The notes: generated from the sequence alone by a model not told the origin. Numbered from the stretch's first letter, positions 20,268 to 59,709 are shown. The stretch is 64,000 nucleotides of DNA from Planctomycetota bacterium (GCA_965248445.1 CBDFJG010000001.1:558131-622130), one strand, 5' to 3'. Numbers and translations: made by a program.

Positions 20268-20947
20268 TGCATATCCGGTTAATGACCGCGCCCACTACAT
20301 CTTGTGCTAGAAGGGCAGCGGGCTTGCAGGCTCGTCGGCGTAGACCTGTTCGTACGTGCGCGGCGGCGTCTTCGCCGCGATGCCGAGGACCGTCTGGAAC
20401 GCTGCCTGCGGCGTGCGTCTCCTGTTGAACCGGAACGTGAACTCGTCGAGATACCGCTGCAGGTGCTTCTCCGAGACCCGGCCGTGGTGCGTGCCTACGA
20501 GCCAGGTCTTGAGGTTGGAGAAGACCAGGTGGTGCAGGTGCCTCAGGACGTCCGCCTGCGCCGCGCCCATCATCGTGGACTCGATCCCGTGCTCGTAGCC
20601 GAGTTTCTCGACTGCGTCGTAGGTCTCGTGGCCGTCGGTCACGACGAGCGCCCCACGCTCGATGCTGTCCTTGACGAACGCCAGCAGGTGCGGCTTCGAT
20701 GAGGCCGGCACGTGGCGCAGCCGGATGCGTCCGGGCTGTGTGCCTCTCTTCGTCGGACGCACCTCGACCGCGCCGACCACGACGGCCTTGTCTGCCGCGG
20801 TGCGCTCCTCTCGGCCTCGAAACGGCGCTCCGATCAGCGCCTCGTCGACCTCGACGACGCCGAACAACTGCGCGCGCTCCGGCGCGACCATCGCAGATCG
20901 CAGTTTCTGGAGCATCTGGTACGCGGTCTCGTAGCGGGTCAGACCGA
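20268..20947 (-). mobile_element. IS1595-family element, 5'-truncated copy
   Basis: Terminal repeat GCATGCATATCCGGTTAATGACC at 20268-20290; transposase C-terminal 202 aa (ORF 20307..20915) near-identical to the full copy at 24838-25878; identity ends at about 20947. Confidence 0.75.
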
Positions 20948-22270
20948 GCTGTCGCTGGAGCCAGGGTCGAGCGGAACCTGTTCAGCGGCCAGCGGTCCGA
21001 CGACCCCGGCGTCGACATCGACGGGCCGAACGCCGTGGTGCAAAAGAACCGGTTCGTCTACGGCCTCGGCGTCGGCATCCAGGTCGATGCCGAGAACGGT
21101 GGAACGGCCACGGTCTGCAAGAATACGGTCGATTCGATGGCGGGCGACTCCTACATCCTGGTGGAGAACGCGGCGGGCCCCAGGGTCCTGAAGAACGTCT
21201 TCAAGAACGCTTACATTGGCGATAGCTACGACCACGTCATCGACCTCCAGTCCTGTGACGACGCCCTAGTCTCCGGCAACAAGATACTGACGATGAACTA
21301 CTCCATCGAGAGGGGGATCAACGTCGCGGGCGAACGGGCGACGGTAACGAAGAACTGCATCGAGAACGTGAATGGCTACTACTACGACCTGTATTGCATC
21401 TACGTGCAGGGGAACGACGCCGCGATCAGCCGCAACAAGATCCGGATCTGCGGCGCCGGGGAGGAATCCGACACGTATGCGATCTACGTTTCCGGGAACA
21501 CAGCGAGCGTCACGCGAAACGCGATCAACGACATAGCTGGTGGCGGCGACGAGATCTTCGGGGTCTATATCGACGGCGACGACGGCTCCATCGACGGCAA
21601 CCGGATCAGCCACCTGAACGAAGAGTACACGTACGCCATCTACTACACCGGCCACAGGGCCCGGATCGTCAAGAACAGGATCGCGCACGTGATGGCTGAC
21701 GGGGACATCTACGTCCGCGGCGATGACTTCCTGATCGAGAACAACACCGTCAGGGACGGAGCGTACTACTGCACCGGTATCTACACGCGCGGATCCGCCA
21801 CGATGCTCGGGGCGGCGGTGATCCAGCGGAACTCACTGAGCTTTCTCGGGTCGGACGGCATCGACCACGGAGGCAACGGGGTGGTCATCCGCGACAACAA
21901 GCTGAACCACCTGGCGGGGTTCGGGGTGATTGCGGACGGAAACGACAACGTGCTGATCGGTAACAGTGTGTCGGGCACGTACACGGCCGCTTTCCACATC
22001 GATGGCAACGACAACAGCGTGACGGGTTGTGCCGCCAGGGACAGCGACGGAGACGGGTTCAGGATCCAGGGCAACAACAACACGCTGGAGAACTGCACGG
22101 CGTCCAACTGCGCCGCCGAGGGCCTCGACAACAGCGGCACCGACACCAGCGCGATGAACTGCCGGTTCACCGGCTCCCGAATCGACTACGCCGGCAACAA
22201 CAACATGATCGACGACACCGGAACGACGTTCGGGACCGGAAGTGCCGCGACCGCGCCCGAGATCAACTGA
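20948..22270 (+). pseudogene. Right-handed parallel beta-helix repeat protein, 5' end replaced by the IS1595 fragment
   Basis: Repeats of the form hydrophobic-x-x-N-x-hydrophobic and G-N-x-hydrophobic (VTKNCIENV, ISRNKIRI, VTRNAIND, IVKNRIAHV, VIRDNKLNHL); the N-terminal region and signal peptide are missing upstream of 20948. Confidence 0.65.
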
Positions 22271-22394: not shown

Positions 22395-23926
22395 GTACCC
22401 GTTCAGGGTATGACGATCCGCGGCCTCAGCGCGTGATCGGGAGCGCGACGAGAGCCGGCGGCGAGCGGTTGTGCGCGAGTGCCGCGCTGACGTCTGCGAG
22501 GTAATCGAAGACGCTCTCGCCACGCTGGCGGAGCGTGGCGGTGACGGTCAGGATGCGCTCGACGAAGCGGAGTCCGCGCTCGCTCTGACTTCCGTGCGTT
22601 GCGCGTCTCCACAGGACCGGCTTGCGCACCGCGCGCTCAGCGGCGTTGTTCGTCGGGGAGACGCCAGGGACGTCGGCGAAGGTCCACAGAGCCTCCGCTC
22701 GGTCGAGCAGATGCCGAGTCGTTCCGCGTACTCGGCGGTGCTTGCTGTCTGCGCCGCGCACGAGCAGCGTCAGGAGTCGGTCCCATGTGAGACGCAGCTC
22801 ACGCCGCATGCGGTCGCGGTCCCCGTGCTCGCCGAAGTGACGCTGAGCTCGCATGACAGCCTGGGCGAGACGCACGGCCTGCTTGCCGAAGCGCCGGCCG
22901 CCGCGCGAGCCCTCGGCCAGCGCTCGAAAGTCCCTCTCGAGATGCGCCCAGCAGATCTGGCGGCGCTCGGTGGGATGCTGGTCGTAAGCGCCCATACGGT
23001 CGGTCACGAGGACGCCCCTGAAGCGCTTGCCCACGAGTCGCCGCATGGCCTTGGCGCTCCTGCGCCGATCGATACGATGGACCGTGGCGTGCTCACAGAC
23101 CGCGCTCCACAGCCAATGCAGCGTGCCACGACGCGACCACGGTGTCTCGTCTACATAGGCGACGCTGCTCGTGCGTACGGCCCCGAGGGCCTCGATGTGC
23201 GCTGAGGAGATGGCTCCCGACACCCGCTCCTCGATCGCACTGACCGTGCCCGGTGACATCGAGACGCCGATGACGTCACGCAACAGACGACTGGTCTCGC
23301 GCCGCGACAGGCGGAAGACGCCGACCAGAGCCGCGGTGAGCGCACAGAGTCGCGGGCCGAAGGGACTCGCCGTCACACCGCTTGGCAGCGAGGCAGTGGA
23401 CGTGGCGCCACAGTCCGTGCACCGTGCCCGGTGCAACCGGTGCTCGGTCACCTGGATCAGCCGTGGCGGGACCTCGAAGACCTGCTGGCGTGTCGGGGCG
23501 CGATCGATCGGGACGAGCACGTCGCTCCCACACGCGCTGCACTCGCGCGGGCGGTGGTCCTCTACGCCATCGACCTCGGACTCGTCCACGAGCTTGCGCG
23601 TCGCCCCTTTGTGGCCGGGCTGCGCACCCTGGCGCTTGTCCGACGGCGGCTTGCGCCGCCGCCGCTTCTTGGACCACGACGGATCCGAGGACGGTGGGCG
23701 CGAGGAGGTGCGGGAGTCCCGGCGAAGACGGCTCTCGAGATCGTCGATCCGTGCCGCCTGCCGCTCGATCACCTCCGCCTGCTCGGCAATCGTCTCGTCC
23801 CGAGCGTCCAGACGACGGGTCAGGCGCTCGACCAGATCACGCAGCTCATCGGTGCCCACATCCGATTCATCGACCGAACGGAAAGCGATCTGGATCCGAG
23901 CTCAGAACCAAGGGCTGAACGGGTAC
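22395..23926 (-). mobile_element. IS66-family single-ORF element (type B), copy 1, with 8-bp target-site duplication
   Basis: Terminal repeats GTACCCGTTCAGGGT (22395-) and AGGGCTGAACGGGTAC (-23926); flanked by direct repeats CGCCTGCG at 22387-22394 and 23927-23934. Confidence 0.9.
22426..23859 (-). CDS. IS66 family transposase
   Basis: 477 aa; identical protein to ORF 29963..31396; coiled-coil N-terminus, zinc-finger cysteines, NNAAERAVRKPVLWRR motif. Confidence 0.9.
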   Translation of the reverse strand: MGTDELRDLVERLTRRLDARDETIAEQAEVIERQAARIDDLESRLRRDSRTSSRPPSSDPSWSKKRRRRKPPSDKRQGAQPGHKGATRKLVDESEVDGVEDHRPRECSACGSDVLVPIDRAPTRQQVFEVPPRLIQVTEHRLHRARCTDCGATSTASLPSGVTASPFGPRLCALTAALVGVFRLSRRETSRLLRDVIGVSMSPGTVSAIEERVSGAISSAHIEALGAVRTSSVAYVDETPWSRRGTLHWLWSAVCEHATVHRIDRRRSAKAMRRLVGKRFRGVLVTDRMGAYDQHPTERRQICWAHLERDFRALAEGSRGGRRFGKQAVRLAQAVMRAQRHFGEHGDRDRMRRELRLTWDRLLTLLVRGADSKHRRVRGTTRHLLDRAEALWTFADVPGVSPTNNAAERAVRKPVLWRRATHGSQSERGLRFVERILTVTATLRQRGESVFDYLADVSAALAHNRSPPALVALPITR

Positions 23927-24837: not shown

Positions 24838-25878
24838 CATGCATATCCGGTTGACGACCGTGACCCCAAGGGGTAGTGTCTCGGACGCATGCCGAAGCCG
24901 GGCTACCCTCGCAACATCGTGGAGTTCACGGAGCAGTTCGCGACGGAAGAGCAGTGCCTCGAGTACCTCGTGCAGTGTCGTTGGCCCGACGGGTTCCGCT
25001 GCCGCCGGTGCGGCGGCAAGAAGTACTGGCCCCGTCCAGATCGAAGAGCGATGCGGTGCGTGGGCTGCGACCTGATCACGTCGGTCACCGCGGGCACAGT
25101 GCTGCATCGCAGCCGGCTGCCGCTGAAGTCCTGGATGTGGGCCGCGTACTTGATGACGACGGACAAGCGGGGCGTCTCTGCGCTCGCACTCCAGCGACAG
25201 CTCGGTCTGACCCGCTACGAGACCGCGTACCAGATGCTCCAGAAACTGCGATCTGCGATGGTCGCGCCGGAGCGCGCGCAGTTGTTCGGCGTCGTCGAGG
25301 TCGACGAGGCGCTGATCGGAGCGCCGTTTCGAGGCCGAGAGGAGCGCACCGCGGCAGACAAGGCCGTCGTGGTCGGCGCGGTCGAGGTGCGTCCGACGAA
25401 GAGAGGCACACAGCCCGGACGCATCCGGCTGCGCCACGTGCCGGCCTCATCGAAGCCGCACCTGCTGGCGTTCGTCAAGGACAGCATCGAGCGTGGGGCG
25501 CTCGTCGTGACCGACGGCCACGAGACCTACGACGCAGTCGAGAAACTCGGCTACGAGCACGGGATCGAGTCCACGATGATGGGCGCGGCGCAGGCGGACG
25601 TCCTGAGGCACCTGCACCTGGTCTTCTCCAACCTCAAGACCTGGCTCGTAGGCACGCACCACGGCCGGGTCTCGAAGAAGCACCTGCAGCGGTATCTCGA
25701 CGAGTTCACGTTCCGGTTCAACAGGAGACGCACGCCGCAGGCAGCGTTCCAGACGGTCCTCGGCATCGCGGCGAAGACGCCGCCGCACGTACGAACAGGT
25801 CTACGCCGACGAGCCTGCAAGCCCGCTGCCCTTCTAGCACAAGATGTAGTGGGCGCGGTCATTAACCGGATATGCATG
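24838..25878 (+). mobile_element. IS1595-family element, full-length copy with 8-bp target-site duplication
   Basis: 22-bp imperfect terminal repeats CATGCATATCCGGTTGACGACC / GGTCATTAACCGGATATGCATG; direct repeat CTCCAAAG at 24830-24837 and 25879-25886. Confidence 0.85.
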
Positions 25879-25908
25879 CTCCAAAGTCCTGGACCACGCG
25901 ATCCCTGA
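24889..25908 (+). CDS. IS1595 family transposase (C-terminus frameshifted relative to the truncated copy)
   Basis: N-terminal zinc-ribbon CRWPDGFRCRRCGG...CVGCD; DDE-type core; a 2-bp difference near 25786 gives a different C-terminal tail that reads through the terminal repeat. Confidence 0.8.
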   Translation: MPKPGYPRNIVEFTEQFATEEQCLEYLVQCRWPDGFRCRRCGGKKYWPRPDRRAMRCVGCDLITSVTAGTVLHRSRLPLKSWMWAAYLMTTDKRGVSALALQRQLGLTRYETAYQMLQKLRSAMVAPERAQLFGVVEVDEALIGAPFRGREERTAADKAVVVGAVEVRPTKRGTQPGRIRLRHVPASSKPHLLAFVKDSIERGALVVTDGHETYDAVEKLGYEHGIESTMMGAAQADVLRHLHLVFSNLKTWLVGTHHGRVSKKHLQRYLDEFTFRFNRRRTPQAAFQTVLGIAAKTPPHVRTGLRRRACKPAALLAQDVVGAVINRICMLQSPGPRDP

Positions 25909-26630: not shown

Positions 26631-27674
26631 ATGGCAAAGGCTACACGTTTCGTGATCGGGATGGACCTGGGCGACCGCGTGGTGCCTGTGTGTGTGCTGG
26701 ACCGCAAGACGGGCGAGATCGTGGGCGAAGGGCGCGTCGCGACGACGCGTGCTCGCCTGACGGAGTTCCTCGGCGAGATCGAGCGCTCGAAGGTGGTGAT
26801 GGAGAGCGGGACGCACTCGCCGTGGATCAGCCGCCTCGCCGAGGGTCTTGGTCACGACGTCATCGTGGCCGATGCGCGTCGGCTGCGCGCGGTGTGGGAC
26901 TCGCCCAAGAAGAGTGACCGCCGCGACGCGCTGGTTCTGGCGCAACTGGGGGCCGGGCACCCAGGGCTCCTTCATCCGGTGTCTCACCGGAGCGAGCGCG
27001 CACAGACCCACATGGTCGTGCTCCGAGCGCGCGAGCGTGTGGTCGACGCGCGTACGAAGTTGGTCAATGCCGCGCGGGGCTCGGTGAAGTCGCTCGGGTA
27101 CCGATTGCCCGCTTGCTCCGCTCCGAGCTTCCATCGCAAGGCACGCGAGGCGGTGCCGGAAACCCTCGTGGACGCCCTGGCCCCGTTGTTCGACGCGATC
27201 GCAGCGTTGACGGAGAGCATCGCGCGCTACGACCGCGAAGTCGAGCGTCTCGGCCGCGACGCGTATCCGGTGACACGACGCCTTCGCGAGGTACCCGGCT
27301 GCGGTCCCGTCACCGCGCTCGCCTACGTGCTCGTCGTCCACGACCCAGAGCGCTTCTCGCGCAATCGCGACGTGGGCGCGTACGTCGGTCTCGTCCCGCG
27401 CCAGGACCAGTCGGGCAAGATCGATCGCCAACTCAGGATCACGAAGTGCGGCGACCGGATGCTCCGCCGGCTGCTCGTGCAGTGCGCGCACTACGTGCTC
27501 GGACCACACGGGCCCGACAGCGACCTGAGACGCTGGGGTCTGGAGCTGGCGCAACGGGGCGGGAAGAACGCGAAGAAACGGGCGACCGTCGCGGTCGCCC
27601 GCAAGCTCGCCGTGCTCTTCCACGCTCTGTGGATGAAGGACCGCGCGTACGAGCCGCTCGCTCGAGCGGCGTGA
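26631..27674 (+). CDS. IS110 family transposase (second, different member)
   Basis: 347 aa; N-terminal RFVIGMDLGDR DEDD-type domain; C-terminal LREVPGCGPVTALAYV helix-hairpin-helix region typical of IS110/IS1111. Confidence 0.85.
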   Translation: MAKATRFVIGMDLGDRVVPVCVLDRKTGEIVGEGRVATTRARLTEFLGEIERSKVVMESGTHSPWISRLAEGLGHDVIVADARRLRAVWDSPKKSDRRDALVLAQLGAGHPGLLHPVSHRSERAQTHMVVLRARERVVDARTKLVNAARGSVKSLGYRLPACSAPSFHRKAREAVPETLVDALAPLFDAIAALTESIARYDREVERLGRDAYPVTRRLREVPGCGPVTALAYVLVVHDPERFSRNRDVGAYVGLVPRQDQSGKIDRQLRITKCGDRMLRRLLVQCAHYVLGPHGPDSDLRRWGLELAQRGGKNAKKRATVAVARKLAVLFHALWMKDRAYEPLARAA

Positions 27675-27971: not shown

Positions 27972-29502
27972 TGGACGTTCAGCCATTGTGTCTGAGCCCG
28001 TATCCAGATCTCCGAGCGGGTTGACGATGAACACCATGTGGGCAAGGACGACCTCCGCGAGTTGATCGAGCGGCAGTCGCGGCGTCTCGCTGCCCAGGAC
28101 GAGAAGATCGCTGAGCAGCAGCGTGTCATCGAGGGGCAGCAGGAGGAGATCGCAGATCTTCGGAACCGCCTGAAGCGGGATTCGCGCAACTCGTCGCGGC
28201 CGCCGTCCTCGGACGCGCCGTGGTCCAAGCGTCGGCGCCGGCGAAAGCCCCCGTCGGACAAGAAGCAGGGCGGCCAGCTGGGTCACGAGGGCAGGACGCG
28301 GCGGCTGGTGGACGAGGACGAGGTCGATGACGTCGAGGACCACCGCCCGAGCGAGTGCTCGAGCTGCGGGGGCAAGGAGCTCGAGCCGCTGGCGCGTCGT
28401 CCGCACCGCCACCAGGTGTGGGAGATCCCGCGGGTGCTGGTCCCGGTGACCGAGCATCGTCTTCACCGTGCGCGCTGCCGGGAGTGCGGCGAGGTGGTGG
28501 CGGCGGCGTTGCCCGAGGGCGTCACCAAGAGCGCCTTGGGCCCGCGGCTGAGCGCGCTTGCGGCATCCTTGAGCGGCGTCTACCGCGTGAGCCGCCGCGA
28601 GGTCTCCCGGCTTCTCTCGGAGGTCTTCGGTGTGACGATGTCGCCCGGCACCGTGAGCGCCATCGAGGGACGGCTCGGTGAAGGGCTCTCGCTGCCGCAC
28701 ATCCAGGCGCTTGGCGCGGTGCGCACGAGCTCGGTGGCCAACGTGGACGAGACGCCGTGGAGCGAACGTGGCGAGCTGCGCTGGCTCTGGACCGCGGTGG
28801 CCGAAGGCGTTACCGCGCACCGCATCGACTCCCGCCGCAACGCGGCCGCGATGAAGCGCCTGATCGGCCGGCGCTATCGCGGGGTGCTGGTGACCGACCG
28901 CATGGGCGCCTACGACAAGCACCCGCTCAAGAGGCGCCAGCTCTGCTGGGCCCACTTGGAGCGCGACTTCCGCGCTCTCGCCGAAGGGCCGCGGGGCGGA
29001 TGGGTCTTCGGCAAGAAGGGCGTCGAGATCGCGGGGGCCGTGATGCGAGTGCACCGCGGCTTCCGCGGCCACGGCGACCGCACCCGGCTCGCGCGCCAGC
29101 TCCGCGATCCCAAGCGCCGGCTCCGCCGCCTGCTCGAACGCGGGGCACGCGCCAAGCACTGTCCGGTCAGGGGCATGTCCAAGCACCTGCTGGCGCGCTT
29201 CGATGCGCTCTTCACCTTCGCCGAGGTCCCCGACGTCGACCCTACGAACAACGCCGCCGAACGCGCGGTCCGCAAGCCGGTGCTCTGGCGCAAGGGCTGC
29301 TACGGCAGCCAGTCCGCTCGCGGCGAACGCTTCGTCGAGCGAGTGCTCACGGCCACCGCGACGCTGCGCCGCCGGGGGGGCAAGTCTTCGACTTCCTCGC
29401 CGACTCGCTCGCCGCGCACGTCTCCGGCGCCGACCCACCCGTCCTCGTCAGCCTGCCGATCCCGCGCTGAGGATCAGGGCCCCCGAAGGGCTGAACGGGT
29501 AC
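27972..29502 (+). mobile_element. IS66-family element (type C) with degenerate left end
   Basis: Right terminal repeat GAAGGGCTGAACGGGTAC at 29485-29502; left end only partially matches (ACGTTCAGCC near 27972); boundaries approximate. Confidence 0.55.
28038..29470 (+). pseudogene. IS66 family transposase with frameshift in a G-homopolymer
   Basis: Protein matches IS66 transposases until a 7-G run at 29374-29380; the expected C-terminus (GGQVFDFLADSLAAHVSGADPPVLVSLPIPR) continues in the +1 frame (ORF 28757..29470). Confidence 0.8.
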
Positions 29503-29931
29503 GTCGAGGTCGCCCGCAATGCGATCACCGGCACTCCGGCTCCTCGGCTCGTCCCTCAGGCCGCCTCGGCCTGAGGCTGGATACCCACGTGAACGGGTAC
29601 TCGCGCTCTACCGGAGACTCCAGGTGACTCGCCCGTTCTCTGCCCCCTGTTCCAGTATGACGACCGACATCAATGGCGACTTCAGTCGGACGTCTCGACT
29701 GTCCACAATCTCACCGCCCGCGATCGTCTGTGACACCGTCTCCTTGTCCAGCGTGTTGAAGTAGACGGTCAACCGCGAACCAGCCGGTTCGGGAGCGTCA
29801 TTCCGTACGACGACCGCCCGTCCTCGTCGAGGGAGGTTCGGGGTCGATCTGATCCAGATCCGGAACGTCTTCGCGCGCGACAGCGCTGAGGTGGTCGTGA
29901 TGTCGCGGGCGGTGTCGGGCGTTCCATCCAC

Positions 29932-31463
29932 GTACCCGTTCAGGGTATGACGATCCGCGGCCTCAGCGCGTGATCGGGAGCGCGACGAGAGCCGGCGGCG
30001 AGCGGTTGTGCGCGAGTGCCGCGCTGACGTCTGCGAGGTAATCGAAGACGCTCTCGCCACGCTGGCGGAGCGTGGCGGTGACGGTCAGGATGCGCTCGAC
30101 GAAGCGGAGTCCGCGCTCGCTCTGACTTCCGTGCGTTGCGCGTCTCCACAGGACCGGCTTGCGCACCGCGCGCTCAGCGGCGTTGTTCGTCGGGGAGACG
30201 CCAGGGACGTCGGCGAAGGTCCACAGAGCCTCCGCTCGGTCGAGCAGATGCCGAGTCGTTCCGCGTACTCGGCGGTGCTTGCTGTCTGCGCCGCGCACGA
30301 GCAGCGTCAGGAGTCGGTCCCATGTGAGACGCAGCTCACGCCGCATGCGGTCGCGGTCCCCGTGCTCGCCGAAGTGACGCTGAGCTCGCATGACAGCCTG
30401 GGCGAGACGCACGGCCTGCTTGCCGAAGCGCCGGCCGCCGCGCGAGCCCTCGGCCAGCGCTCGAAAGTCCCTCTCGAGATGCGCCCAGCAGATCTGGCGG
30501 CGCTCGGTGGGATGCTGGTCGTAAGCGCCCATACGGTCGGTCACGAGGACGCCCCTGAAGCGCTTGCCCACGAGTCGCCGCATGGCCTTGGCGCTCCTGC
30601 GCCGATCGATACGATGGACCGTGGCGTGCTCACAGACCGCGCTCCACAGCCAATGCAGCGTGCCACGACGCGACCACGGTGTCTCGTCTACATAGGCGAC
30701 GCTGCTCGTGCGTACGGCCCCGAGGGCCTCGATGTGCGCTGAGGAGATGGCTCCCGACACCCGCTCCTCGATCGCACTGACCGTGCCCGGTGACATCGAG
30801 ACGCCGATGACGTCACGCAACAGACGACTGGTCTCGCGCCGCGACAGGCGGAAGACGCCGACCAGAGCCGCGGTGAGCGCACAGAGTCGCGGGCCGAAGG
30901 GACTCGCCGTCACACCGCTTGGCAGCGAGGCAGTGGACGTGGCGCCACAGTCCGTGCACCGTGCCCGGTGCAACCGGTGCTCGGTCACCTGGATCAGCCG
31001 TGGCGGGACCTCGAAGACCTGCTGGCGTGTCGGGGCGCGATCGATCGGGACGAGCACGTCGCTCCCACACGCGCTGCACTCGCGCGGGCGGTGGTCCTCT
31101 ACGCCATCGACCTCGGACTCGTCCACGAGCTTGCGCGTCGCCCCTTTGTGGCCGGGCTGCGCACCCTGGCGCTTGTCCGACGGCGGCTTGCGCCGCCGCC
31201 GCTTCTTGGACCACGACGGATCCGAGGACGGTGGGCGCGAGGAGGTGCGGGAGTCCCGGCGAAGACGGCTCTCGAGATCGTCGATCCGTGCCGCCTGCCG
31301 CTCGATCACCTCCGCCTGCTCGGCAATCGTCTCGTCCCGAGCGTCCAGACGACGGGTCAGGCGCTCGACCAGATCACGCAGCTCATCGGTGCCCACATCC
31401 GATTCATCGACCGAACGGAAAGCGATCTGGATCCGAGCTCAGAACCAAGGGCTGAACGGGTAC
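29932..31463 (-). mobile_element. IS66-family element (type B), copy 2, no target-site duplication
   Basis: Same terminal repeats and same internal ORF set as copy 1; flanks CCATCCAC and ACGCGCGC do not match; right end abuts a truncated IS1380 transposase. Confidence 0.85.
29963..31396 (-). CDS. IS66 family transposase
   Basis: 477 aa, identical to ORF 22426..23859. Confidence 0.9.
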   Translation of the reverse strand: MGTDELRDLVERLTRRLDARDETIAEQAEVIERQAARIDDLESRLRRDSRTSSRPPSSDPSWSKKRRRRKPPSDKRQGAQPGHKGATRKLVDESEVDGVEDHRPRECSACGSDVLVPIDRAPTRQQVFEVPPRLIQVTEHRLHRARCTDCGATSTASLPSGVTASPFGPRLCALTAALVGVFRLSRRETSRLLRDVIGVSMSPGTVSAIEERVSGAISSAHIEALGAVRTSSVAYVDETPWSRRGTLHWLWSAVCEHATVHRIDRRRSAKAMRRLVGKRFRGVLVTDRMGAYDQHPTERRQICWAHLERDFRALAEGSRGGRRFGKQAVRLAQAVMRAQRHFGEHGDRDRMRRELRLTWDRLLTLLVRGADSKHRRVRGTTRHLLDRAEALWTFADVPGVSPTNNAAERAVRKPVLWRRATHGSQSERGLRFVERILTVTATLRQRGESVFDYLADVSAALAHNRSPPALVALPITR

Positions 31464-51566: not shown

Positions 51567-53741
51567 TCAGTTCTCGCCGTCGTAGGGCACGTCGAGCTCG
51601 TTCGCCACGAATGCCCACTTGTCGGCGACCTCGTCGATCTGCTTGCTGACCGGCTTTCCGGCGCCGTGACCCGCGCGGGTCTCGATCCGGATCAGGCACG
51701 GCGCGTCGCCGCCCTGCGCCCGCTGGAGTGCCGCGGCGAACTTGAAGCTGTGCGACGGCACGACGCGATCGTCGTGATCGCCCGTCATCACCATCGTGGG
51801 CGGGTACGAGGCACCCTCCTCGAGGTTGTGGTACGGCGAGTACTCACGGATATAGGCGAACGCATCCGGCTCATCTGGTGAGCCGTAGTCCGAGACCCAG
51901 GCCCATCCGATCGTGAACTTGTGGAAGCGCAGCATGTCGAGCACGCCCACGGCCGGGATGCACGCGCCGAACAGATCCGGCCGCTGCGTCATGCACGCAC
52001 CGACGAGCAGCCCGCCGTTGCTCCCGCCCGCGATGGCGAGCTTCGGCGTCGACGTGTACTTCTCCGCGATCAGCCACTCGGCGGCCGCGATGAAGTCGTC
52101 GAACACGTTCTGCTTGCGCTCGAGCGTGCCGGCCGCGTGCCACTCCTCGCCGTATTCCCCGCCACCCCGCAGGTTCGCGACGGCATGCACCCCACCCATC
52201 TCGAGCCACACGAGGTTCGATATGGCGAATCCGGGTGTCAACGGGATGTTGAACCCGCCGTAACCGTAGAGGTACGTCGGGTTGTTCCCGTCGAGCACGA
52301 GGCCCTTCTTGTGCGTCAGGAACATCAGGATCCGCGTCCCGTCCTTCGAGTTGTAGAAGACCTGCTCCGTCTCGAACGCGGTGCGCTCGAACGGCAGTTC
52401 GACGCGGCGGAAGAGCGTGCTCTCACCGGTCACGACGTCGTAGCGGTGGATCTCCGTCGGCGTCGTGAAGCTCGAGTACGCGTAGTGCGTGACGTCATCG
52501 CCGACGTGCCCGCCGAAGCCCGTCGCCGTCCCGAGCCCGGGCAACGGCACGTCGCGAACGTGTGAACCGTCGAGCCCGTGCACCCGCACGAGGCTGCGCG
52601 CGTCCTGCAGGTACTCGCAGACGAGGTGATCTCCGACACGTGAGACGTTCCTCAGCGTCTCGTCGGCATGCGGGATCAGCTCGACCCACTGGTCGCGCGC
52701 CGGCCGGTCGAGGTCGATCGCGAGGACCCGGCCGCGCTCGGCATCGAGATCGGTGCGCACGATGAAGCGGCGGCCGACGTTGGCCACGACGTCATAGCTC
52801 GCGTCGTTCTCGTCGAGCAAGCGGACGAGCTCACCCTCGCGGCCGTCGTCCAGATCGACGTAGTGGATGCGGTTCTCGCGCGCCGTGCCTTCCCACACGT
52901 AGATGACCAGGAACGCCCCGTCCTCGCTCACACGGGCGCCGAAGCCGCGCTTGGGGTGCTCGGGATCCTGGAGAACCACGCGATCTCCGTTGGGATCGGT
53001 CCCCAGCGCATGGAACTGCATGCGCTGCTTCTCGTTCTTGCTCTCGTACTCCTCGCCTTCCGCGGGCTGGTCGTAGCAGCTGTAGTAGAAGCCGCTGCCG
53101 TCCCGGGCCCACGCGGCGCCGCTGAACTTCGCCCACTCGACTCGATCCGCGCGGTCCGCGCCGGTGGCCACCTCGCGTACACGCCACTCGATCCAGTCGG
53201 AGCCGGCGATCTGTACTGCATACGCGACCAGCGCGCCGTCGGGACTCGGCGACACCTGCCCGAGAGCAACGGTGCCGTCCTCGGACAACTTGTTCGGATC
53301 GATGAGCGCGCGCGGCTCGGCGCCGTCGTGATCCACCACGTACAGAACGCTCTGGTCCTGCAGCCCGTCGTTGTGGCGGTAGAACGTCTTACCGCCGCGC
53401 CGGTAAGGAACGTCGTACCGTTCGTGGTCCCACAGGTCCTCGATCCGCTTGCGGATGGCGGCCCGCTGAGGGATGCCCGCGAGATGCGCCTGCGTCACCG
53501 CGTTCTGCGCCTCGACGAACGCAGCCGTTGCCGGACTGTCCAGGTCTTCCAGCCAGCGGTACGGATCGGCGACCTCGACACCGTGCAACGTCTCAACGAC
53601 GTCGCCGCGACGCACGTCGGGGTAGGCCGGCGCTTCGGTGGTCTCGCTCATGGGTTGGTCGCCTCCGCAGGCCGCCACGATCGAGACAGCCGCCAGGACG
53701 GCGAAGACTCGGACAGAGTGGGCACCTGTTTGCATCTGCAT
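51567..53741 (-). CDS. Prolyl oligopeptidase (S9A family), secreted or lipoprotein form
   Basis: Catalytic Ser region GGSNGGLLVGA; N-terminal beta-propeller and C-terminal alpha/beta hydrolase domains; signal peptide with AACGG. Confidence 0.85.
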   Translation of the reverse strand: MQMQTGAHSVRVFAVLAAVSIVAACGGDQPMSETTEAPAYPDVRRGDVVETLHGVEVADPYRWLEDLDSPATAAFVEAQNAVTQAHLAGIPQRAAIRKRIEDLWDHERYDVPYRRGGKTFYRHNDGLQDQSVLYVVDHDGAEPRALIDPNKLSEDGTVALGQVSPSPDGALVAYAVQIAGSDWIEWRVREVATGADRADRVEWAKFSGAAWARDGSGFYYSCYDQPAEGEEYESKNEKQRMQFHALGTDPNGDRVVLQDPEHPKRGFGARVSEDGAFLVIYVWEGTARENRIHYVDLDDGREGELVRLLDENDASYDVVANVGRRFIVRTDLDAERGRVLAIDLDRPARDQWVELIPHADETLRNVSRVGDHLVCEYLQDARSLVRVHGLDGSHVRDVPLPGLGTATGFGGHVGDDVTHYAYSSFTTPTEIHRYDVVTGESTLFRRVELPFERTAFETEQVFYNSKDGTRILMFLTHKKGLVLDGNNPTYLYGYGGFNIPLTPGFAISNLVWLEMGGVHAVANLRGGGEYGEEWHAAGTLERKQNVFDDFIAAAEWLIAEKYTSTPKLAIAGGSNGGLLVGACMTQRPDLFGACIPAVGVLDMLRFHKFTIGWAWVSDYGSPDEPDAFAYIREYSPYHNLEEGASYPPTMVMTGDHDDRVVPSHSFKFAAALQRAQGGDAPCLIRIETRAGHGAGKPVSKQIDEVADKWAFVANELDVPYDGEN

Positions 53742-53828
53742 CTCTCTGGTCCAGCGCCACCCGCGCGCGCCGAGCCGCAGATCGTAGCCCGGCCGCAGGC
53801 TTCGTCCACGCGCAGGTCGGGCGCGGCG

Positions 53829-55006
53829 TCAGCTGAGGCCGGAGAGCGCCTGATCGACGTCCGCCCAGACGTCCTCGACGTGCTCGATCCCGCACGAGAT
53901 ACGCAGGAGCCCGTCGCCGATCCCGAGCAGTTCGCGCTGCTCGGCGGTCAACGCGGCGTGAGACGACGTGGCGGGGTGCGCCACGGTCGTCGTCACGCCG
54001 CCCAGGCTGGGCGTGAACGTGAGCAGGCGCAGGGCCCGCACGAAGTCGTCGACGCGAGCCCGCGAACCCGTGTCGAACGCCACGAGCGCGCATGCGCCCG
54101 AGTGATGCACGGCCCCACCGCCGGGTGTTCGCGCAGGCGTGCGGCCAGTGTCGCCGCGTTCTGGCACCCGCGCTCCATGCGGAGTGCGAGCGTGCGCAGC
54201 CCGCGGTCGCAGAGCCACGCGTCGAACGGACTGGCCCGGCCGCCCAGGTGGACCGACTTCGTGCGCACACGGTCCATATCCGCTGTGGTGCCGCACACGA
54301 CACCGACCGTCACGTCGTGGTGTCCGCCGAGGAACTTGGTCCCCGAGTGCAAGACGATGTCTGCGCCCTCGGTGAGCGGGCGGGAGAGCATCGGCGTCGC
54401 GAACGTCCCATCTACGACGAGGCGGACGTCCGCATCTCCGCACGCAGCCGCTAGCGCGGCGACGTCCACGCGGCGGAGCAGGGGATTCGAGATGGACTCG
54501 ACGAGCAGCAGCTTCGGGTTGCCGCCGGCCGCCGCGCGGACGGCGTCCGTGTCGTACGCATCGACCGCAACGACATCGATGCCCAGCGGCCCGAGGTCGC
54601 CCTCTAACAGTCCCATCGTGCCGCCGTACGCGTCGGACTGGACAAGGACCGCGTCTCCGGAAGATGCGAAGGCCAGCACCGTCGCCGAGATCGCCGCGAG
54701 TCCGCTCGCCGTCGCCACGCCGTCCTCGGCCTCCTCGAGCGCCACCATGGACAGCTCGAGCGTGCGGCCGTTCGGGTGGCCGTACCGCGCGTACGCGTAT
54801 CCCTCGCGACCGGACAGTGGACGGAGCGACGCGGCCACGTCCTCGAAGTCGTACGCGGTGCTGACCTGCAGCGGCGGCCGGTGCGGGCGCGCGCGCAGGC
54901 CCGGGGGCTGCTGCTCGGGAGCAGGTGCGCGGGCGCCACGGGCCGCCTGCGTCTCCCTGCGCTGCACCGCTTCTCTGGGCGGCGCCGGCGGCTCCTTGTC
55001 ACTCAT
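53829..55006 (-). pseudogene. PLP-dependent trans-sulfuration family enzyme, disrupted by frameshift/indel
   Basis: N-terminal frame (53993..55006) carries the core up to ...[10 protein letters not shown]...EHPAV; the conserved C-terminus ([18 protein letters not shown]...[14 protein letters not shown]) is in another frame (53829..54443); ~18 residues expected between the two appear missing near 54090-54130. Confidence 0.6.
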
Positions 55007-55028
55007 CCGAGCAGGGTACCCCGCCGAC

Positions 55029-56402
55029 TCAACGGGTTCGAAGTGGAGCGTGGAACTTCACGAAGAGCCGGCCGGCACGGGTCACGACCAACACCCGGCC
55101 CGCGAGGGCCTCCGGGGCACCTTCCGGCGGCAGCGTGACATCGCACTCGACCCAGACCGAGAGGCGTCGGCCTGCGCCCAGCGCGGTCCGCCTCGTGGGC
55201 TGTCCGATGCGCAGCCGCTCATCCGTGAACTCCAGCAGCGGAGACGCAACCAAGTCGGCCGTTCGCAACCCCTTCGCGAAGTGCAGACCAACGTGCAGAC
55301 GCACGAGGGCGCGTCCCGTGCTGTCGCCGACGATCACGGTCTCGACGGTGATGCGCTCCCCGGCGTTCTCGGACCCGGCGAAATCAAGCTCGCTACGCTC
55401 GACCGTCTTGCGCACGCGCGGATCGAGCAACTCCGCACCGGAGAGGCCCGTACGGAGGTCGAGCGGGTGCTCGTCGCGCGGCTGTATCGACCGCCGGGCT
55501 TCGCTGACCCACGGATAGAACGGGTACGGCTTGTCGAGCAACGGCCCGTACTGCTGGATGCGACGACGCCAGATGTACTGCTTCTTCCGGAGATCCAGGG
55601 CGCCGGACCAGGCGTCCACAGCCCGTTGGAAGTCCCCCGGCTGCGCACCGTTCGAGTCGTGGCGCATGCGATGCGCAACGCCCAGGCGGAACCGCGCGGC
55701 CGCGTCCTCGGAGTGCGTGTCGACGTACGCGCCGATCGTCTCAATCGCTCCGTCGCGAGCGTCCTCGGAGCCCCACAGCAGGGATGTCAGGGCCTCGAAG
55801 TACTTGCGATCGGGAGCCGTCCGAGCCATCCCGTCGAGCTCGATCAGACGACCCTTGGCGTGCGCGCCGTCGGCCGGCGGCAGGTCATCGGGGGCGTCGA
55901 ACGCGACGTCGAGGAACTCCTTCTCGATCGTCTCGAGCGTCGGCCGTTTGGAACGCACGACGCCGTGTTCGTCGACCAGCGTCAGGTTCGGCACGGCGGC
56001 AGCCCCCGTGACGTTCAGCGGATCCCACAGGATCGGCCAGTCGATCTCGTGCCACTGAGCGAACAGGCGCGCGCGGTCCCGGTGCTGTTCCTGCACGATG
56101 CCGATGACCGCGAGCTTCCCGCTCTTGCGCCACTTCTCGGTCGCGCGGTGCCACACGGGCACCTTCTTGCGGCAACCCGCTCACCAGGAGGCAAACTCGA
56201 TCAGGAGCAACTTCTTGCCGCGGTAGTCCGAGAGGCGGACCGTCTGCTCACCGTCGATCGTTGGCAATCGCACGTCGGGCAGGACCTCCCCGATCGCGGC
56301 CCGTGCCGGCTCTCGGTCGCCCGCGATCGCCACGGCGCTGAGCGTAACGACAAGCATTGTCGCGAGCCTGCGTGGACGCATCACAAGCCTGCGTGGACGC
56401 AT
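55029..56402 (-). CDS. Candidate selenoprotein: secreted TlpA/ResA-like thioredoxin-fold protein with in-frame TGA (Sec) at 56181-56183, plus ~300-aa C-terminal domain
   Basis: ORFs 56181..56402 and 55029..56162 share a frame and are separated only by the TGA; translation ...GKKLLLIEFASW-[TGA]-AGCRKKVPVW... puts the TGA at the first Cys of a thioredoxin CxxC motif; signal peptide present; hairpin 18 nt downstream. Confidence 0.6.
56147..56180 (-). promoter_or_regulatory. Candidate SECIS-like hairpin downstream of the in-frame UGA
   Basis: mRNA: UGA-GCGG-GUUG-CCGC-AAGAAG-GGUGCC-CGUGU-GGCACC; perfect 6-bp stem with 5-nt loop 18-34 nt after the UGA, preceded by a 4-bp minihairpin. Confidence 0.3.
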
Positions 56403-56773
56403 CAGAAGAAGCCGTGATCCAGGTCCACCTCGTGGCTGTCCAGGACCCCTTCACTCAGCCGGATCGTGACTGTGCCGTGCGTGTTTCCCGGATCGATGTC
56501 CGCAGCGACACGCGCAAAGCGATCCTTGCCGTGGGAGTCCTTCCACCGCACGCGGACCTTTTCGGTCGGTGCGGTGGGCTCGACCTTGACGCTGTCGCTG
56601 GCGCCGTCTTCCAGATCATCGAGCGGGTACTCCGTCCCCTGTACCTCGACCCGCACTGACGTGAGTGTCACGCCGGACACGTTCTCGACGACAACCCGGA
56701 TGCCCTTGCCGAGCGCCACCCACACGAAGAGTGCGATCGTGAGCACCGCGACGACTACCGCGACCTTCTTCAT
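56402..56773 (-). CDS. Small membrane-anchored or secreted protein (123 aa)
   Basis: ATG at 56773 overlaps the upstream stop (ATGA); its own stop overlaps the next start (ATGA); N-terminal hydrophobic helix MKKVAVVVAVLTIALFVWVAL. Confidence 0.5.
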   Translation of the reverse strand: MKKVAVVVAVLTIALFVWVALGKGIRVVVENVSGVTLTSVRVEVQGTEYPLDDLEDGASDSVKVEPTAPTEKVRVRWKDSHGKDRFARVAADIDPGNTHGTVTIRLSEGVLDSHEVDLDHGFF

Positions 56774-58605
56774 TCGTCGTCCTCTTCTTCGGTGGCGGGC
56801 GGCACTTCGCTCGCGAGCGGGATCCACTCGACGTACCCGATCATCATCTCCTCCGAAGTCTGCTCCCCGAAGCGCACTCTGCGCGTGGGGTCGGGATTGG
56901 CCGGGTTGTCGGCGCTGTTGTCGAACCACGCAACGCAGTCGATCCGCGCTCCGGCAGGCACGTCGATGGGATCGCGGAGGCGGTAGTTCAGCTGCCAGTT
57001 GAAGTCGTACCGCGGCACGTCGAGGAGCCGCGTGCGCTCCCCGTCCGGCAGCACCAGTTCGTAACGGAAGCCGGCACCGCGGAGGTGCATGTGCGGCGTG
57101 AGAGACAGCAGACGCGCCGGCTGGCGGAACGAGTGGTCCGCGCGAACTGCGTGGCGCTTCGCACCGGGGGGGATGCGGAAGCGAGTATTGTGGATGCCCG
57201 TCGAACGCACCTCGTGGTCCGGGGGGCCGTCCGTGAACACGAGACCGAGCCGCGGTCGGTCCTGCACCGCCTCGCCGTTCGGCGTGTAGTGGATCTGGAA
57301 GCGCAGGCGCGCGCCCTTCGGCAAGAAGCGCCCGGACGCGCGCGGGAACACCAGGTGGTTCTGTCCGGGGACCATCGCTGCGAAGTACCCGGAGACACCA
57401 TTCTGGTCGCGCGGCTGCTCCATCATCCGCGGGTGTGACGCCGGATAGTGGCAGAACACGAGGATGTGGTGCACGACCTGGGGGTGCGTCGGCTGCACCT
57501 CGAACGCGCGCACCCACTTGTCCTCGTCGAACGACGTGGTCAGCGTCTGATACTGGTACTGCATGATGCCGTCGGCCGGCACGTCGGTCGTCTTGGGCAC
57601 GTCGATCACGACGTCCGGCCGGCCGATGTTCCAGCCGGTCGCCCGCGCGATCGGTAGGGGCGCGTCCGACGTCTCGCCCTCTGGGCAGTCGCCCGCGATC
57701 CACTCGAGAAGCGTCGCGCGCTCCCGCTCGGTGAGACTCAGGTCGTTGCCCATCGGCACGGAGTGGGCCGCGTCGGCAAACCACGGCGGCATGACCCGAC
57801 GCTCGACGACATCGGCGATCATCGCGCGATGCCCGCGCACCTCCTTGTACGACGTCAGCGAGAAGGGCGCGCTTTGCTGCGGCCGATGGCACGAGACGCA
57901 CCGACGATCGACGATGCGCGCCACGCTGCCGTGGTACGTCGGCAGTTCCTCCGCCGCAAGCGCATCGCCGGCTGCGACTGCGCACCCCGGAGCGGTCGTG
58001 GCGGCGACGTCCGGCGCGGCGTTCGCCGCCACCGACGCCAGCGCGTCACGCAGGTAGTGGTGCCGCGCCGCCGCGAGCGCGTAGCCGAACCCGTAGCGAT
58101 CGTCGATCGCACCGCGGTAGACCAGTGTGCGCGCGCCGTCGAGGACGAACGCCTCGGTCGTCGTCCCGACGCGCAGCGCCCGGGCCAGCTCACCGCCTGG
58201 ATCGTGGATCCAGCGGCCGGAGACACCGGTCTTCTCCCGGCTCGTGCGCACCATCTCGACCGTGTCGGCCTCACCGACGCCGAGCACGATGCAGACGATC
58301 CCGTCTTTCTCGAACTGCGCCGAGAGTGACTTCTGCGTCGGGCCGTACCGCTTGGACAGCGGGCACGTGGTCGAACGGGCGAGCACCACGACCGTCTTGC
58401 CCCTGTACTCCGACAGCCGTCCGACCTTGCCGTCGATGTCAGAGAACGCCGCGTCCGCAACGAGGACCCCGACGCCGGCTGCGGCCGCGTCGAGTGTGCG
58501 CGGCGCCTGGCGCACGGCGCTCTCGCCCTCCCCCGCGGTGATGCTCACGGGCCACGCGACGCACGCAATGCCGAGGAGGGTCAGCAGAGTGCGTATGACC
58601 GTCAC
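56770..58605 (-). CDS. Periplasmic fusion protein: thioredoxin-like (CxxS) domain + c-type cytochrome (CxxCH) + Cu-monooxygenase-like domain
   Basis: GTG at 58605 with GGGAGA SD, overlapping the upstream stop (GTGA); signal peptide TLLTLLGIACVAW; redoxin-like block with TTCPLS; heme motif CVSCH; C-terminal His/Met pattern HHILVFCHY ... HMHLRG ... MMIGY reminiscent of type II Cu monooxygenases. Confidence 0.7.
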   Translation of the reverse strand: MTVIRTLLTLLGIACVAWPVSITAGEGESAVRQAPRTLDAAAAGVGVLVADAAFSDIDGKVGRLSEYRGKTVVVLARSTTCPLSKRYGPTQKSLSAQFEKDGIVCIVLGVGEADTVEMVRTSREKTGVSGRWIHDPGGELARALRVGTTTEAFVLDGARTLVYRGAIDDRYGFGYALAAARHHYLRDALASVAANAAPDVAATTAPGCAVAAGDALAAEELPTYHGSVARIVDRRCVSCHRPQQSAPFSLTSYKEVRGHRAMIADVVERRVMPPWFADAAHSVPMGNDLSLTERERATLLEWIAGDCPEGETSDAPLPIARATGWNIGRPDVVIDVPKTTDVPADGIMQYQYQTLTTSFDEDKWVRAFEVQPTHPQVVHHILVFCHYPASHPRMMEQPRDQNGVSGYFAAMVPGQNHLVFPRASGRFLPKGARLRFQIHYTPNGEAVQDRPRLGLVFTDGPPDHEVRSTGIHNTRFRIPPGAKRHAVRADHSFRQPARLLSLTPHMHLRGAGFRYELVLPDGERTRLLDVPRYDFNWQLNYRLRDPIDVPAGARIDCVAWFDNSADNPANPDPTRRVRFGEQTSEEMMIGYVEWIPLASEVPPATEEEDDE

Positions 58606-59024
58606 GCGTCTCCCTCGCCGGAATCCCCCGCCGCGTGCAGACGCCACCGCATCCCGGCGAACGTCAGGAGCAGCGCGGGTGCAATGGTCAACAGCTGCGC
58701 CAACCGCCCGATCTCGAAGACGAGTTGCGCGCCGGTGACCCAGAGGAGCGAGTAGAGCGCCGCACCTACGCCGAGCCAGAGCGCGCGCCCCGTCCACGGA
58801 CGTCCGTTCCACATGCCCGCCGCGGCGAGGCCCGGGAAGAGGACGTACGCGATGAAATCCGGAGGTACGAAGCTCCAGGCGAAGTGTGGCTCGACGCCCG
58901 CCGGCAGGTACTGCTCCGCCACGAGTTCAGGACGCAGAAGCGTGACGACGATGCCCGCTGTGCCCGCGAGCGACAGCGCGATCAGCGCAGCGGTCCACCA
59001 GCGTCTCTCCCCCCGTGCGAGCAT
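58602..59024 (-). CDS. Small polytopic membrane protein (140 aa), possibly DoxX/MauE-like
   Basis: Four predicted hydrophobic helices; stop overlaps the downstream start; 36 bp after the lipoprotein gene. Confidence 0.5.
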   Translation of the reverse strand: MLARGERRWWTAALIALSLAGTAGIVVTLLRPELVAEQYLPAGVEPHFAWSFVPPDFIAYVLFPGLAAAGMWNGRPWTGRALWLGVGAALYSLLWVTGAQLVFEIGRLAQLLTIAPALLLTFAGMRWRLHAAGDSGEGDA

Positions 59025-59060
59025 CTGACCCTTCTAACAAAATTGGGCTACCAGTCCCGG

Positions 59061-59627
59061 TCACCAGTGATGGCCGAACCCGAAGCCGTAGCCGTGGTGG
59101 CCGCCGTAGTGGCCGAACCCGAAGGACCAGTGGCCGTAGTGCGGGTACGCGTCATGGTAGGCGTATCGCACCCGCTCGAAGTTGACGTGTCCGTCCGCGG
59201 TCTTGTTCCCGACGAGGGCCCTCCAGCGGACGGCCAGGCCGTCGAGGTCGACGTCGACGTCCTCGGGGAGCCCGAAGTACGCCGTGAACTGCCGCGACGT
59301 ACCAGCCGGGACCGTCGTGTCACCGTCCGGGCCGAAGCCCACCAGCGGTAGGTCGATCAGGTCGGCCGACACGGCGTTCAGGTGCTCCTTCTGGAGCGTG
59401 ACGTCCCGGTCGGGTGGCGCTTCGATGCGGAGCCGGACGTCCACCGACTCGGGCAGTCCGTCGGCGGCCGAGGCGCGGCGCACACCTTCGACGGCGGCGA
59501 GCACGCGGGCCTTGCTCTCGGTGACAGCGACGGCGGGAGCCGGCGAGTACTGAAAGCCGGGACGGTAGGTGGAGCAGGCGGAGAGCAGCAGCAGGGCCGC
59601 CGCGGGAATGAGGATGCGATGGGTCAT
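59061..59627 (-). CDS. Lipoprotein with C-terminal His/Gly/Tyr/Trp-rich tail
   Basis: ATG at 59627 with GGAGAG SD; lipobox LLLLSAC; tail HYGHWSFGFGHYGGHHGYGFGFGHHW. Confidence 0.65.
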   Translation of the reverse strand: MTHRILIPAAALLLLSACSTYRPGFQYSPAPAVAVTESKARVLAAVEGVRRASAADGLPESVDVRLRIEAPPDRDVTLQKEHLNAVSADLIDLPLVGFGPDGDTTVPAGTSRQFTAYFGLPEDVDVDLDGLAVRWRALVGNKTADGHVNFERVRYAYHDAYPHYGHWSFGFGHYGGHHGYGFGFGHHW

Positions 59628-59709
59628 GGTGTCTCTCCGTGAGGAGGGTGTCCGGGGGACCCGCCGCTAAGAGGGTACCCTCCCGCTTCGAACCGACAGG
59701 AGAACGTCC

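Follow-up and report, generated by a model that had tools for sequence, protein, structure and literature searches.

A stretch of 64,000 nucleotides from a Planctomycetota bacterium (GCA_965248445.1, CBDFJG010000001.1:558131-622130; hereafter the window, approximately 69% GC) carries on its minus strand, at positions 55029–59627, a cluster of five genes for envelope proteins, which are denoted P1 to P5 in gene order. The central gene encodes P3, a fusion of thioredoxin-like, cytochrome c, and copper monooxygenase-like domains, and the last one encodes P5, a thioredoxin-fold protein with an in-frame UGA codon at its redox motif. We favor, with some reservation, the view that P3 is a self-contained periplasmic copper monooxygenase core, accompanied here by a lineage-specific and probably co-transcribed set of envelope genes that does not constitute a conserved multi-protein system. 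P5 is strongly supported as a genuine selenoprotein of a separate and widespread family, in which selenocysteine (Sec) would be inserted at the UGA.

Domain Architecture and Conserved Residues of P3

The sequence of P3 is identical to the database protein P0001 and begins with a hydrophobic helix (residues 3–16), which is followed by the three domains listed in Table 1. An alignment and Pfam survey of 44 homologs sharing 44–83% identity was used to evaluate this family. In the thioredoxin-like domain, C81-P82 of the CPxC/S motif was invariant; the second Cys was present in roughly half of the homologs, and the window copy reads CPLS (C81 to S84). C208 is a second invariant Cys of the same domain. 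The CxxCHR sequence (C236-x-x-C239-H240-R241) and MPPW (M272–W275) of the following domain were also invariant, and a CxxCH motif, an exported protein, and a distal ligand, which are expected for a c-type cytochrome, were all found in P3. The C-terminal part retains the two-subdomain β-sandwich catalytic core of the PHM/DBH type (peptidylglycine α-hydroxylating monooxygenase and dopamine β-hydroxylase), in which H379-H380, H439, H505-x-H507, and M587 were invariant, these ligand groups being spaced by 59, 66, and 80 residues. The copper ligands of PHM are H107, H108, H172, H242, H244, and M314 with a spacing of about 64, 70, and 70 residues, and this numbering agrees with the mutant names H107A, H108A, H172A, and M314I in PDB titles. 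The candidate ligands of P3 match those of CuH and CuM in order and approximate spacing, an equivalence drawn without residue-level superposition.

The Pfam survey detected AhpC-TSA in all 44 members, and the window P3 itself passed this model with 32.2 bits against a cut-off of 26 (AhpC-TSA/Redoxin). For the heme domain, Cytochrome_CBB3 was matched by 38, Haem_bd by 26, and Cytochrom_C by 18 of the 44 members, and Cu2_monoox_C was matched by 43 of them at E ≤ 0.05, with the best value at 1.4e-11. A profile of the whole P3 protein searched against PDB sequences found 3u5r, 2ywi, and 2cvb at about 1e-20. An initial annotation of this DNA had proposed the same tri-domain fusion from its CxxS and CVSCH motifs, and had let the proposal depend on conservation of the CxxCH and on a monooxygenase-like C-terminal domain. 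Both motifs are present as described (CPLS, and CVSCH at C236–H240), none of the 44 aligned homologs lacks the heme-binding sequence, and the family-level matches together with the invariant residues bear out the fusion and its monooxygenase-like end.

Distribution of the P3 Family and Its Neighboring Genes

A protein search returned more than 727 relatives of P3 with a length of approximately 600 aa, which are mostly annotated as “redoxin domain-containing protein” or “peroxiredoxin”. In a scan of species-representative genomes, at least 552 stretches were confirmed, mainly in Planctomycetota, Verrucomicrobiota, and Armatimonadota and under a small number of further labels; Limnoglobus roseus PX52 is a cultured carrier. 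A homolog of 41% identity was also located on a contig binned into an archaeal metagenome-assembled genome (MAG) of Nitrosopumilus sp. (locus L067); the contig is probably bacterial and mis-binned, so its P3 homolog would not be archaeal.

The surroundings of P3 were examined in two ways, by clustering the flanking open reading frames (ORFs) of 85 loci and by a six-frame hidden Markov model (HMM) search for the partners in 91 loci; 80 fetched loci represent species-representative genomes, and L088, L001, and L002 were fetched separately. No conserved neighbor of P3 emerged across the 85 loci. The best flanking-ORF cluster was present in 14 loci and contains large secreted proteins, which we take, by their sequence alone, to be of the DUF1501 / DUF1549–DUF1553 type. 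Proteins of this type are abundant in genomes of the Planctomycetes-Verrucomicrobia-Chlamydiae group. P4 adjoined P3 in only one of the 80 species-representative loci (L008), and P1, P2, and P5 in none. In the six-frame search, P3 and P4 were found together in five genomes (the window, L088, L001, L002, and L008), and the P4-bearing loci are all and only those whose P3 is at least 55% identical. P1 to P4 occur together in three genomes (the window, L088, and L001) and P1 to P5 in two, the window and its 85%-identical relative L088.

The individual loci illustrate this gradation. In L001, the order is tdk, a 181-aa gene, a 130-aa gene, P3, and a 124-aa gene, followed by RND/MarR genes, a pyridoxal phosphate (PLP) enzyme, and an S9 peptidase, and in L002, a 122-aa gene and then a convergent RND-efflux/MarR block come after P3. 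The closest species representative is the MAG OFTM316, in which one contig carries P3 and P4 (L008) and another contig the closest P5 homolog (L006); the 122-aa ORF after P3 in L008 was identified as a P4 homolog (hhalign probability 99.9). P3 stands alone in L003, and in a Planctomycetota MAG (L004, 1–10774), two P3 paralogs (610 and 637 aa) share one strand and are interspersed with two large genes for Ser/Thr protein kinases. Co-location across diverse genomes, by which a conserved operon is recognized, was hence not observed. Since co-conservation is nested and shallow, the five-gene cluster is regarded as a recent lineage-specific assembly around P3, which normally works without P1, P2, P4, and P5 as neighbors. 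The dedicated conserved module of the initial annotation does not survive these counts: the genes are largely not co-conserved outside the closest relatives, a statement that does not extend to the fusion protein.

P5 and Its In-Frame UGA Codon

P5 consists of a signal peptide, a TlpA/ResA-like thioredoxin fold containing W-U-A-G-C, a TPR-like helical region, and a C-terminal β domain, and matches AhpC-TSA/Redoxin with 46.5 bits (E 4e-12). Gene callers treat its TGA codon as a stop (P0121, 375 aa), by which P5 would be a pseudogene or two genes of 73 and about 377 aa. This reading also gains from the window itself, where no Sec machinery was seen: selA, selB, selD, and tRNA-Sec were not found in the 64 kb (30 ORFs tested), which counts against the selenoprotein assignment. 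The comparative evidence nevertheless makes a true stop barely credible. Identical FASW-TGA-AGCR was read in the window and six homologs (L088, L006, L007, L089, L090, and L091), which represent at least three phyla, namely Planctomycetota, Acidobacteriota, and Myxococcota, and in these seven loci the protein is conserved on both sides of the codon while nearby synonymous sites vary. The G+C content at third codon positions (GC3) is 0.81 and 0.85 on the two sides of the TGA. The codon occupies the catalytic Cys position, and among the best 120 database hits examined for their start sites, only two are full-length in frame with C-A-E-S or S-A-A-S at this site (Cys form P0209, Ser form P0162). 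Approximately 115 of the 120 are truncated, of which 108 begin at PxWH just past the UGA and approximately 7 slightly further downstream.

A SECIS-like hairpin (Sec insertion sequence) was identified downstream of the UGA. Its 6-bp stem and 5-nt loop (xGUGCC-NNNNN-GGCACx') occupy the equal position in all seven loci, with a closing pair that covaries as G-C, G-U, C-G, or U-A and shows one C·A mismatch. The Val codon in the stem is GUG in all seven loci, and the Val codon in the loop varies. Taken by itself, the 67-nt segment reaches a fold z-score of only −1.4, and no Rfam model matches the hairpin. Furthermore, the P5 homolog of a Myxococcales MAG (L090, 125–2131) is convergent with an adjoining selA, the gene for selenocysteine synthase. 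In L091 (3106–3753 and 3782–5224), the P5 homolog is directly preceded by a second TGA-split gene, which encodes an AhpC-TSA/Prx-like protein with ASW-U-PYC, and both adjacent selenoprotein genes were mis-called as ORF pairs. The candidate UxxC selenoprotein of the initial annotation is thereby strongly supported by the conserved UGA and hairpin, the systematic truncation of its homologs, and the existence of a Cys form.

P5-family genes occupy unrelated contexts in other loci. The homolog in a Vicinamibacteraceae MAG (L089, 1–4265) is divergent from a cluster of an extracytoplasmic function (ECF) sigma factor, a zf-HC2 anti-sigma factor, a Redoxin protein, and a DsbD_TM (CcdA-like) protein, a neighborhood that hints at a role of P5-family proteins in a regulated periplasmic thiol-reducing pathway. 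Most family members end in YALYxxCExxxGxC..RQD, which places a Cys pair in the β domain (P0124, P0149, P0209, and L089). Both of these Cys residues are lost in the window P5 (55029–55200) and in its closest homolog L006, so that the C-terminal domain may be degenerate here. A DsbD-alpha-like nature of this domain, suspected from YxxCxxxxGxC, received no Pfam support and was discarded.

Gene Junctions and the Small Proteins P1, P2, and P4

The five genes show GC3 values of 0.81–0.89 and are closely packed. P1 and P2 are separated by a 36-nt gap, P2 and P3 overlap by 4 nt (GTGA), P3 and P4 by 4 nt (ATGA, with the ATG start of P4 inside the P3 stop), and P4 and P5 by 1 nt (TGATG). The initial annotation had counted six genes with three 4-nt overlaps. 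Its GTGA and its first ATGA stand and the last overlap is the 1-nt TGATG, and a sixth gene is obtained only when the Sec gene is taken as two ORFs or the downstream PLP gene is included. Between 53500 and 60000, neither a sigma-70-like promoter (consensus scan) nor an intrinsic terminator was predicted, which is compatible with a single transcript but is no proof of it. The overlapping or short junctions and the lack of a predicted terminator suggest that the five genes are probably co-transcribed. An Rfam scan of 53500–60500 gave no family match beyond one chance miRNA hit. The tdk–P1 synteny is retained in L001 and L088.

P1 ends in a Gly/aromatic/His-rich tail (YAYHDAYPHYGHWSFGFGHYGGHHGYGFGFGHHW) with 8 His in the last 34 residues. 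It has no Pfam or NCBIfam match and only three database hits, and its homologs are those of L088 (85% identity) and L001 (38%) plus a single 35%-identical protein, so that P1 is nearly an orphan. All of these homologs keep the lipobox Cys. The His-rich lipoprotein tail pointed out in the initial annotation is present here, but it is His-rich only in this genome and the 85%-identical relative; as few His occur in L001 and P0243, the tail was rejected as a conserved metal site. The earlier labeling of P2 as “DoxX-like” could not be upheld, since no Pfam or NCBIfam family was matched at E ≤ 0.1 and no HMM supported a DoxX identity; P2 homologs were located only in L001 (33% identity) and, as fragments, in L088. 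P4 belongs to a small family (70 representatives among 1.8 billion proteins) of approximately 122–130 aa with a transmembrane helix and a β-sandwich, whose alignment contains no conserved Cys, His, or Met. Its predicted model is an 8-strand β-sandwich of high quality (pLDDT 94.5) that matches generic Ig-like domains only and offers no functional lead. P4 is a clade-specific partner of P3.

Table 1. Features of the five-gene cluster and of other parts of the window (positions in the window; residue numbers refer to the protein).
Feature	Position	Strand	Description
P1	59061-59627	-	188-aa lipoprotein; lipobox LLSAC (LLSAC|STYR)
P2	58602-59024	-	140 aa; hydrophobic, polytopic small membrane protein
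P3	56770-58605	-	611-aa tri-domain fusion; GTG start; secreted or membrane-anchored
P3 thioredoxin-like/PRX-like domain	57961-58473	-	~aa 45-215; C81-P-L-S84, C208
P3 mono-heme c-type cytochrome domain	57670-57936	-	~aa 224-312; C236-V-S-C239-H240-R241, M272-P-P-W275
P3 PHM/DBH-like two-subdomain copper monooxygenase core	56806-57633	-	~aa 325-600
P3 candidate copper sites			CuH: H379, H380, H439; CuM: H505, H507, M587
P4	56402-56773	-	123 aa; membrane-anchored, N-terminal transmembrane helix, beta-sandwich
P5	55029-56402	-	457 codons, one in-frame TGA
In-frame UGA, P5 codon 74	56181-56183	-	First Cys position of thioredoxin CxxC
SECIS-like hairpin	56147-56163	-	GGUGCC-CGUGU-GGCACC; begins 18 nt past the UGA
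P1/tdk intergenic region	59628-59709	.	Divergent; presumed promoter region of the cluster
tdk, thymidine kinase	59710-60276	+	Divergent from P1; TK Pfam match 8e-35
IS66-family transposase genes (four)	1975-3375, 22426-23859, 28038-29627, 29963-31396
IS1595 transposase	24889-25908
IS110 transposase	26631-27674
DDE_Tnp_1_4 transposase	15495-16922

Functional Interpretation

The occupancy of P3 by heme and copper, the direction of electron flow, and the monooxygenase chemistry can be outlined as a model from its domains and conserved residues. The heme c domain would take single electrons from periplasmic carriers and pass them to CuH, in place of the ascorbate used by the animal enzymes, and CuM would bind O2 and hydroxylate a C–H bond of the substrate. 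The thioredoxin-like domain, through C81 and C208, may hold and present a thiol-containing substrate, or may have an accessory role in redox or copper handling. P4 would be an accessory Ig-like partner that the clade nearest to this genome gained, and P1 and P2 may have been added still more recently as further envelope accessories. P5 is predicted to be a thiol-disulfide reductase that resembles TlpA/ResA, is located in the periplasm, and carries a UxxC site, the UGA being read through by means of the SECIS hairpin. Re-reduction of Cys81 of P3 by P5, or any other functional link between them, is speculative because the two genes are adjacent only here and in one close relative.

Several observations weigh against this interpretation. 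The window P3 scored below the Pfam cut-offs for Haem_bd (16.8 against 27) and for Cu2_monoox_C (PF03712; 12.9 against 23 bits), and the N-terminal model Cu2_monooxygen (PF01082) gave no hit for it. A profile of the C-terminal domain found nothing among PDB sequences at E ≤ 10, PHM included, and the monooxygenase relationship must for this reason be remote; its basis is the fold, the pattern of the ligands, and the family-level PF03712 matches. No paper on the P3 family was found in the literature. The tight coupling of P1 to P4 and their retention in L001 at only 33–62% identity suggest that these proteins act together within the clade, for which reason “accessory” may understate P1, P2, and P4.

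The same coupling is the starting point for the idea that the five proteins constitute a single dedicated module for electron transfer or metal handling in the envelope. In this module, the P1 tail would serve to bind copper or pass it on, P2 would be an anchor of the complex or an electron carrier, P4 a scaffold, and P5 the reductase that keeps the thiols or copper of P3 reduced. TlpA-type reductases are established to reduce the copper-site cysteines of Sco and CoxB, and the idea further draws on the five same-strand genes with 4-, 4-, and 1-nt overlaps and a 36-nt gap, as well as on the synteny of P1 to P4 in L001 despite the low identity and of P1 to P5 in L088. We regard it as unlikely, because P3 occurs in hundreds of genomes with none of these partners, P5-family genes lie in unrelated contexts, and the P3 and P5 homologs of OFTM316 are on separate contigs. 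In addition, the P1 tail does not retain its His content among homologs, no metal- or redox-active residue of P4 is conserved, and P2 could not be assigned to a family. A different objection concerns P3 alone, whose PHM-like domain could be a non-hydroxylase that, together with the heme and Cys residues, serves Sco-like copper sequestration or trafficking, oxidase or peroxidase chemistry, or plain electron transfer. Such a role is quite improbable for a domain that keeps the whole two-subdomain catalytic core and in which all monooxygenase ligands, the CuM Met among them, are retained without exception down to 44% identity, a pattern characteristic of catalysis in PHM, DBH, and TBM (tyramine β-monooxygenase). 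The self-contained copper monooxygenase core thus remains our preferred description of P3.

A bolder form of this description can also be drawn, which we offer as a long shot. The P3 family may represent an unrecognized class of self-sufficient bacterial PHM/DBH-type monooxygenases, in which the built-in cytochrome c replaces ascorbate and the single-Cys domain forms a mixed disulfide with a Cys-containing peptide or protein and so holds this substrate for periplasmic hydroxylation. P4, P1, and P2 would then be dedicated accessories, and P5 would release or recycle the Cys81 disulfide.

PHM, DBH, and TBM are regarded as enzymes of animals that depend on ascorbate, and the passage of electrons to and across their two widely separated copper sites has long been a matter of inquiry. 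If the assignment of P3 is true, its copper core is covalently linked to heme c and available from a cultured member, so that a tractable system would be at hand, in which electron delivery can be initiated and monitored optically. A hydroxylation chemistry in the periplasm of Planctomycetota, Verrucomicrobiota, and related bacteria would then also be indicated. The P5 family comprises more than 1,000 database entries, nearly all of which are labeled “hypothetical protein”, are N-terminally truncated, and are devoid of the active site; this bears on annotation pipelines and on how selenium use is estimated for bacteria of soil and water. The five-gene operon itself is of less importance, being limited to a small number of close relatives. 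The weight lies on the heme-fused bacterial PHM/DBH-type family and on the database-truncated selenoprotein family, not on the operon.

Other Features of the Window

At 56363–56404 (minus strand), the junction of the P4 stop and the P5 start is repeated as a tandem 21-nt duplication (20/21 identical; TGATGCGTCCACGCAGGCT..). The N-terminus of P5 thereby reads MRPRRLV-MRPRRLA and has a second in-frame ATG, which makes two candidate starts; the 85%-identical relative L088 lacks the duplication. A PLP-enzyme gene of Cys/Met metabolism (53829–55006, minus strand) begins 22 nt downstream of P5 and is broken across two frames, with Pfam profile positions 17–272 in one ORF and 293–380 in the other. 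Its ortholog in L088 is intact (389 aa), and the split gene is either a frameshift pseudogene or an assembly error. L088 also contains a β-helix gene between P5 and the PLP gene, which the window lacks at this place. Right-handed β-helix genes are located elsewhere in the window at 20699–22270 and 32209–33360, which match the NosD model, and at 60599–61753, which matches Beta_helix only and below the cut-off.

The segment 1975–31463 is rich in insertion sequences (Table 1), among which the copies at 22395–23926 and 29932–31463 are 100% identical over at least 1,532 bp. Beyond tdk, a small RRM-type RNA-binding protein with a Gly/Arg-rich tail is encoded at 61998–62306 on the plus strand, and a 498-aa protein at 62500–63996 on the minus strand, which consists of a DTW domain (residues 114–297) followed by an uncharacterized extension of approximately 200 aa.

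Comparison with Known Systems

The domains of P3 were already partly visible in precomputed Pfam annotations. A literature search on bacterial PHM-like proteins and on cytochrome c or redoxin fusions found nothing relevant and no paper describing this architecture. Compared with the copper type II, ascorbate-dependent monooxygenases PHM, DBH, and TBM (PF01082/PF03712), P3 is a bacterial, periplasmic protein of 17–20% identity that has no DOMON or PAL domain, and its core is fused N-terminally to the cytochrome c and thioredoxin-like domains. The cytochrome c fusion therefore implies a heme electron donor rather than ascorbate. Heme donors tethered to copper enzymes are known from cytochrome c-fused copper nitrite reductases and from cellobiose dehydrogenase, whose cytochrome domain reduces lytic polysaccharide monooxygenases. 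P3 shares with them the logic of a heme tethered to a mononuclear copper site, but its copper domain is unrelated, and the analogy is functional only. The thioredoxin-fold proteins of the PRX-like and TlpA-ResA groups (PDB 3u5r SMc02350, 2ywi, and 2cvb/2ywo) are stand-alone, whereas the corresponding domain of P3 is one module of a three-domain enzyme, in which the first Cys of the CxxC alone is invariant.

P5 resembles the Sec-containing TlpA/ResA-like and Prx-like thiol:disulfide oxidoreductases in having a signal peptide, an AhpC-TSA/Redoxin fold, and Sec at the first redox Cys followed by a helical/TPR region. The closest curated family among them, NCBIfam NF041054 (“ResA-like WAxxUGC motif-containing protein”), gave a partial match to P5 (1e-15). 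P5 differs from this family in its score (57.7 bits against a cut-off of 300) and in its motif, W-U-A-G-C (UxxC) instead of UGC, and is not an equivalog member. A conserved core of its own (QYIWRRRIQQYGP..DKPYPFY) distinguishes the P5 family, as does a C-terminal β domain with the Cys pair that the window copy has lost. A 2026 review lists Sec-containing TlpA-like proteins, a “thiol-disulfide isomerase-like protein (UxxC)”, and a “Prx-like thiol:disulfide oxidoreductase (UxxC)” (PMC13188914). Because the NF041054 match lies below the cut-off with a differing motif and UxxC families appear in that list, P5 is a new member or a sister family of the known Sec-containing thiol-disulfide oxidoreductases.

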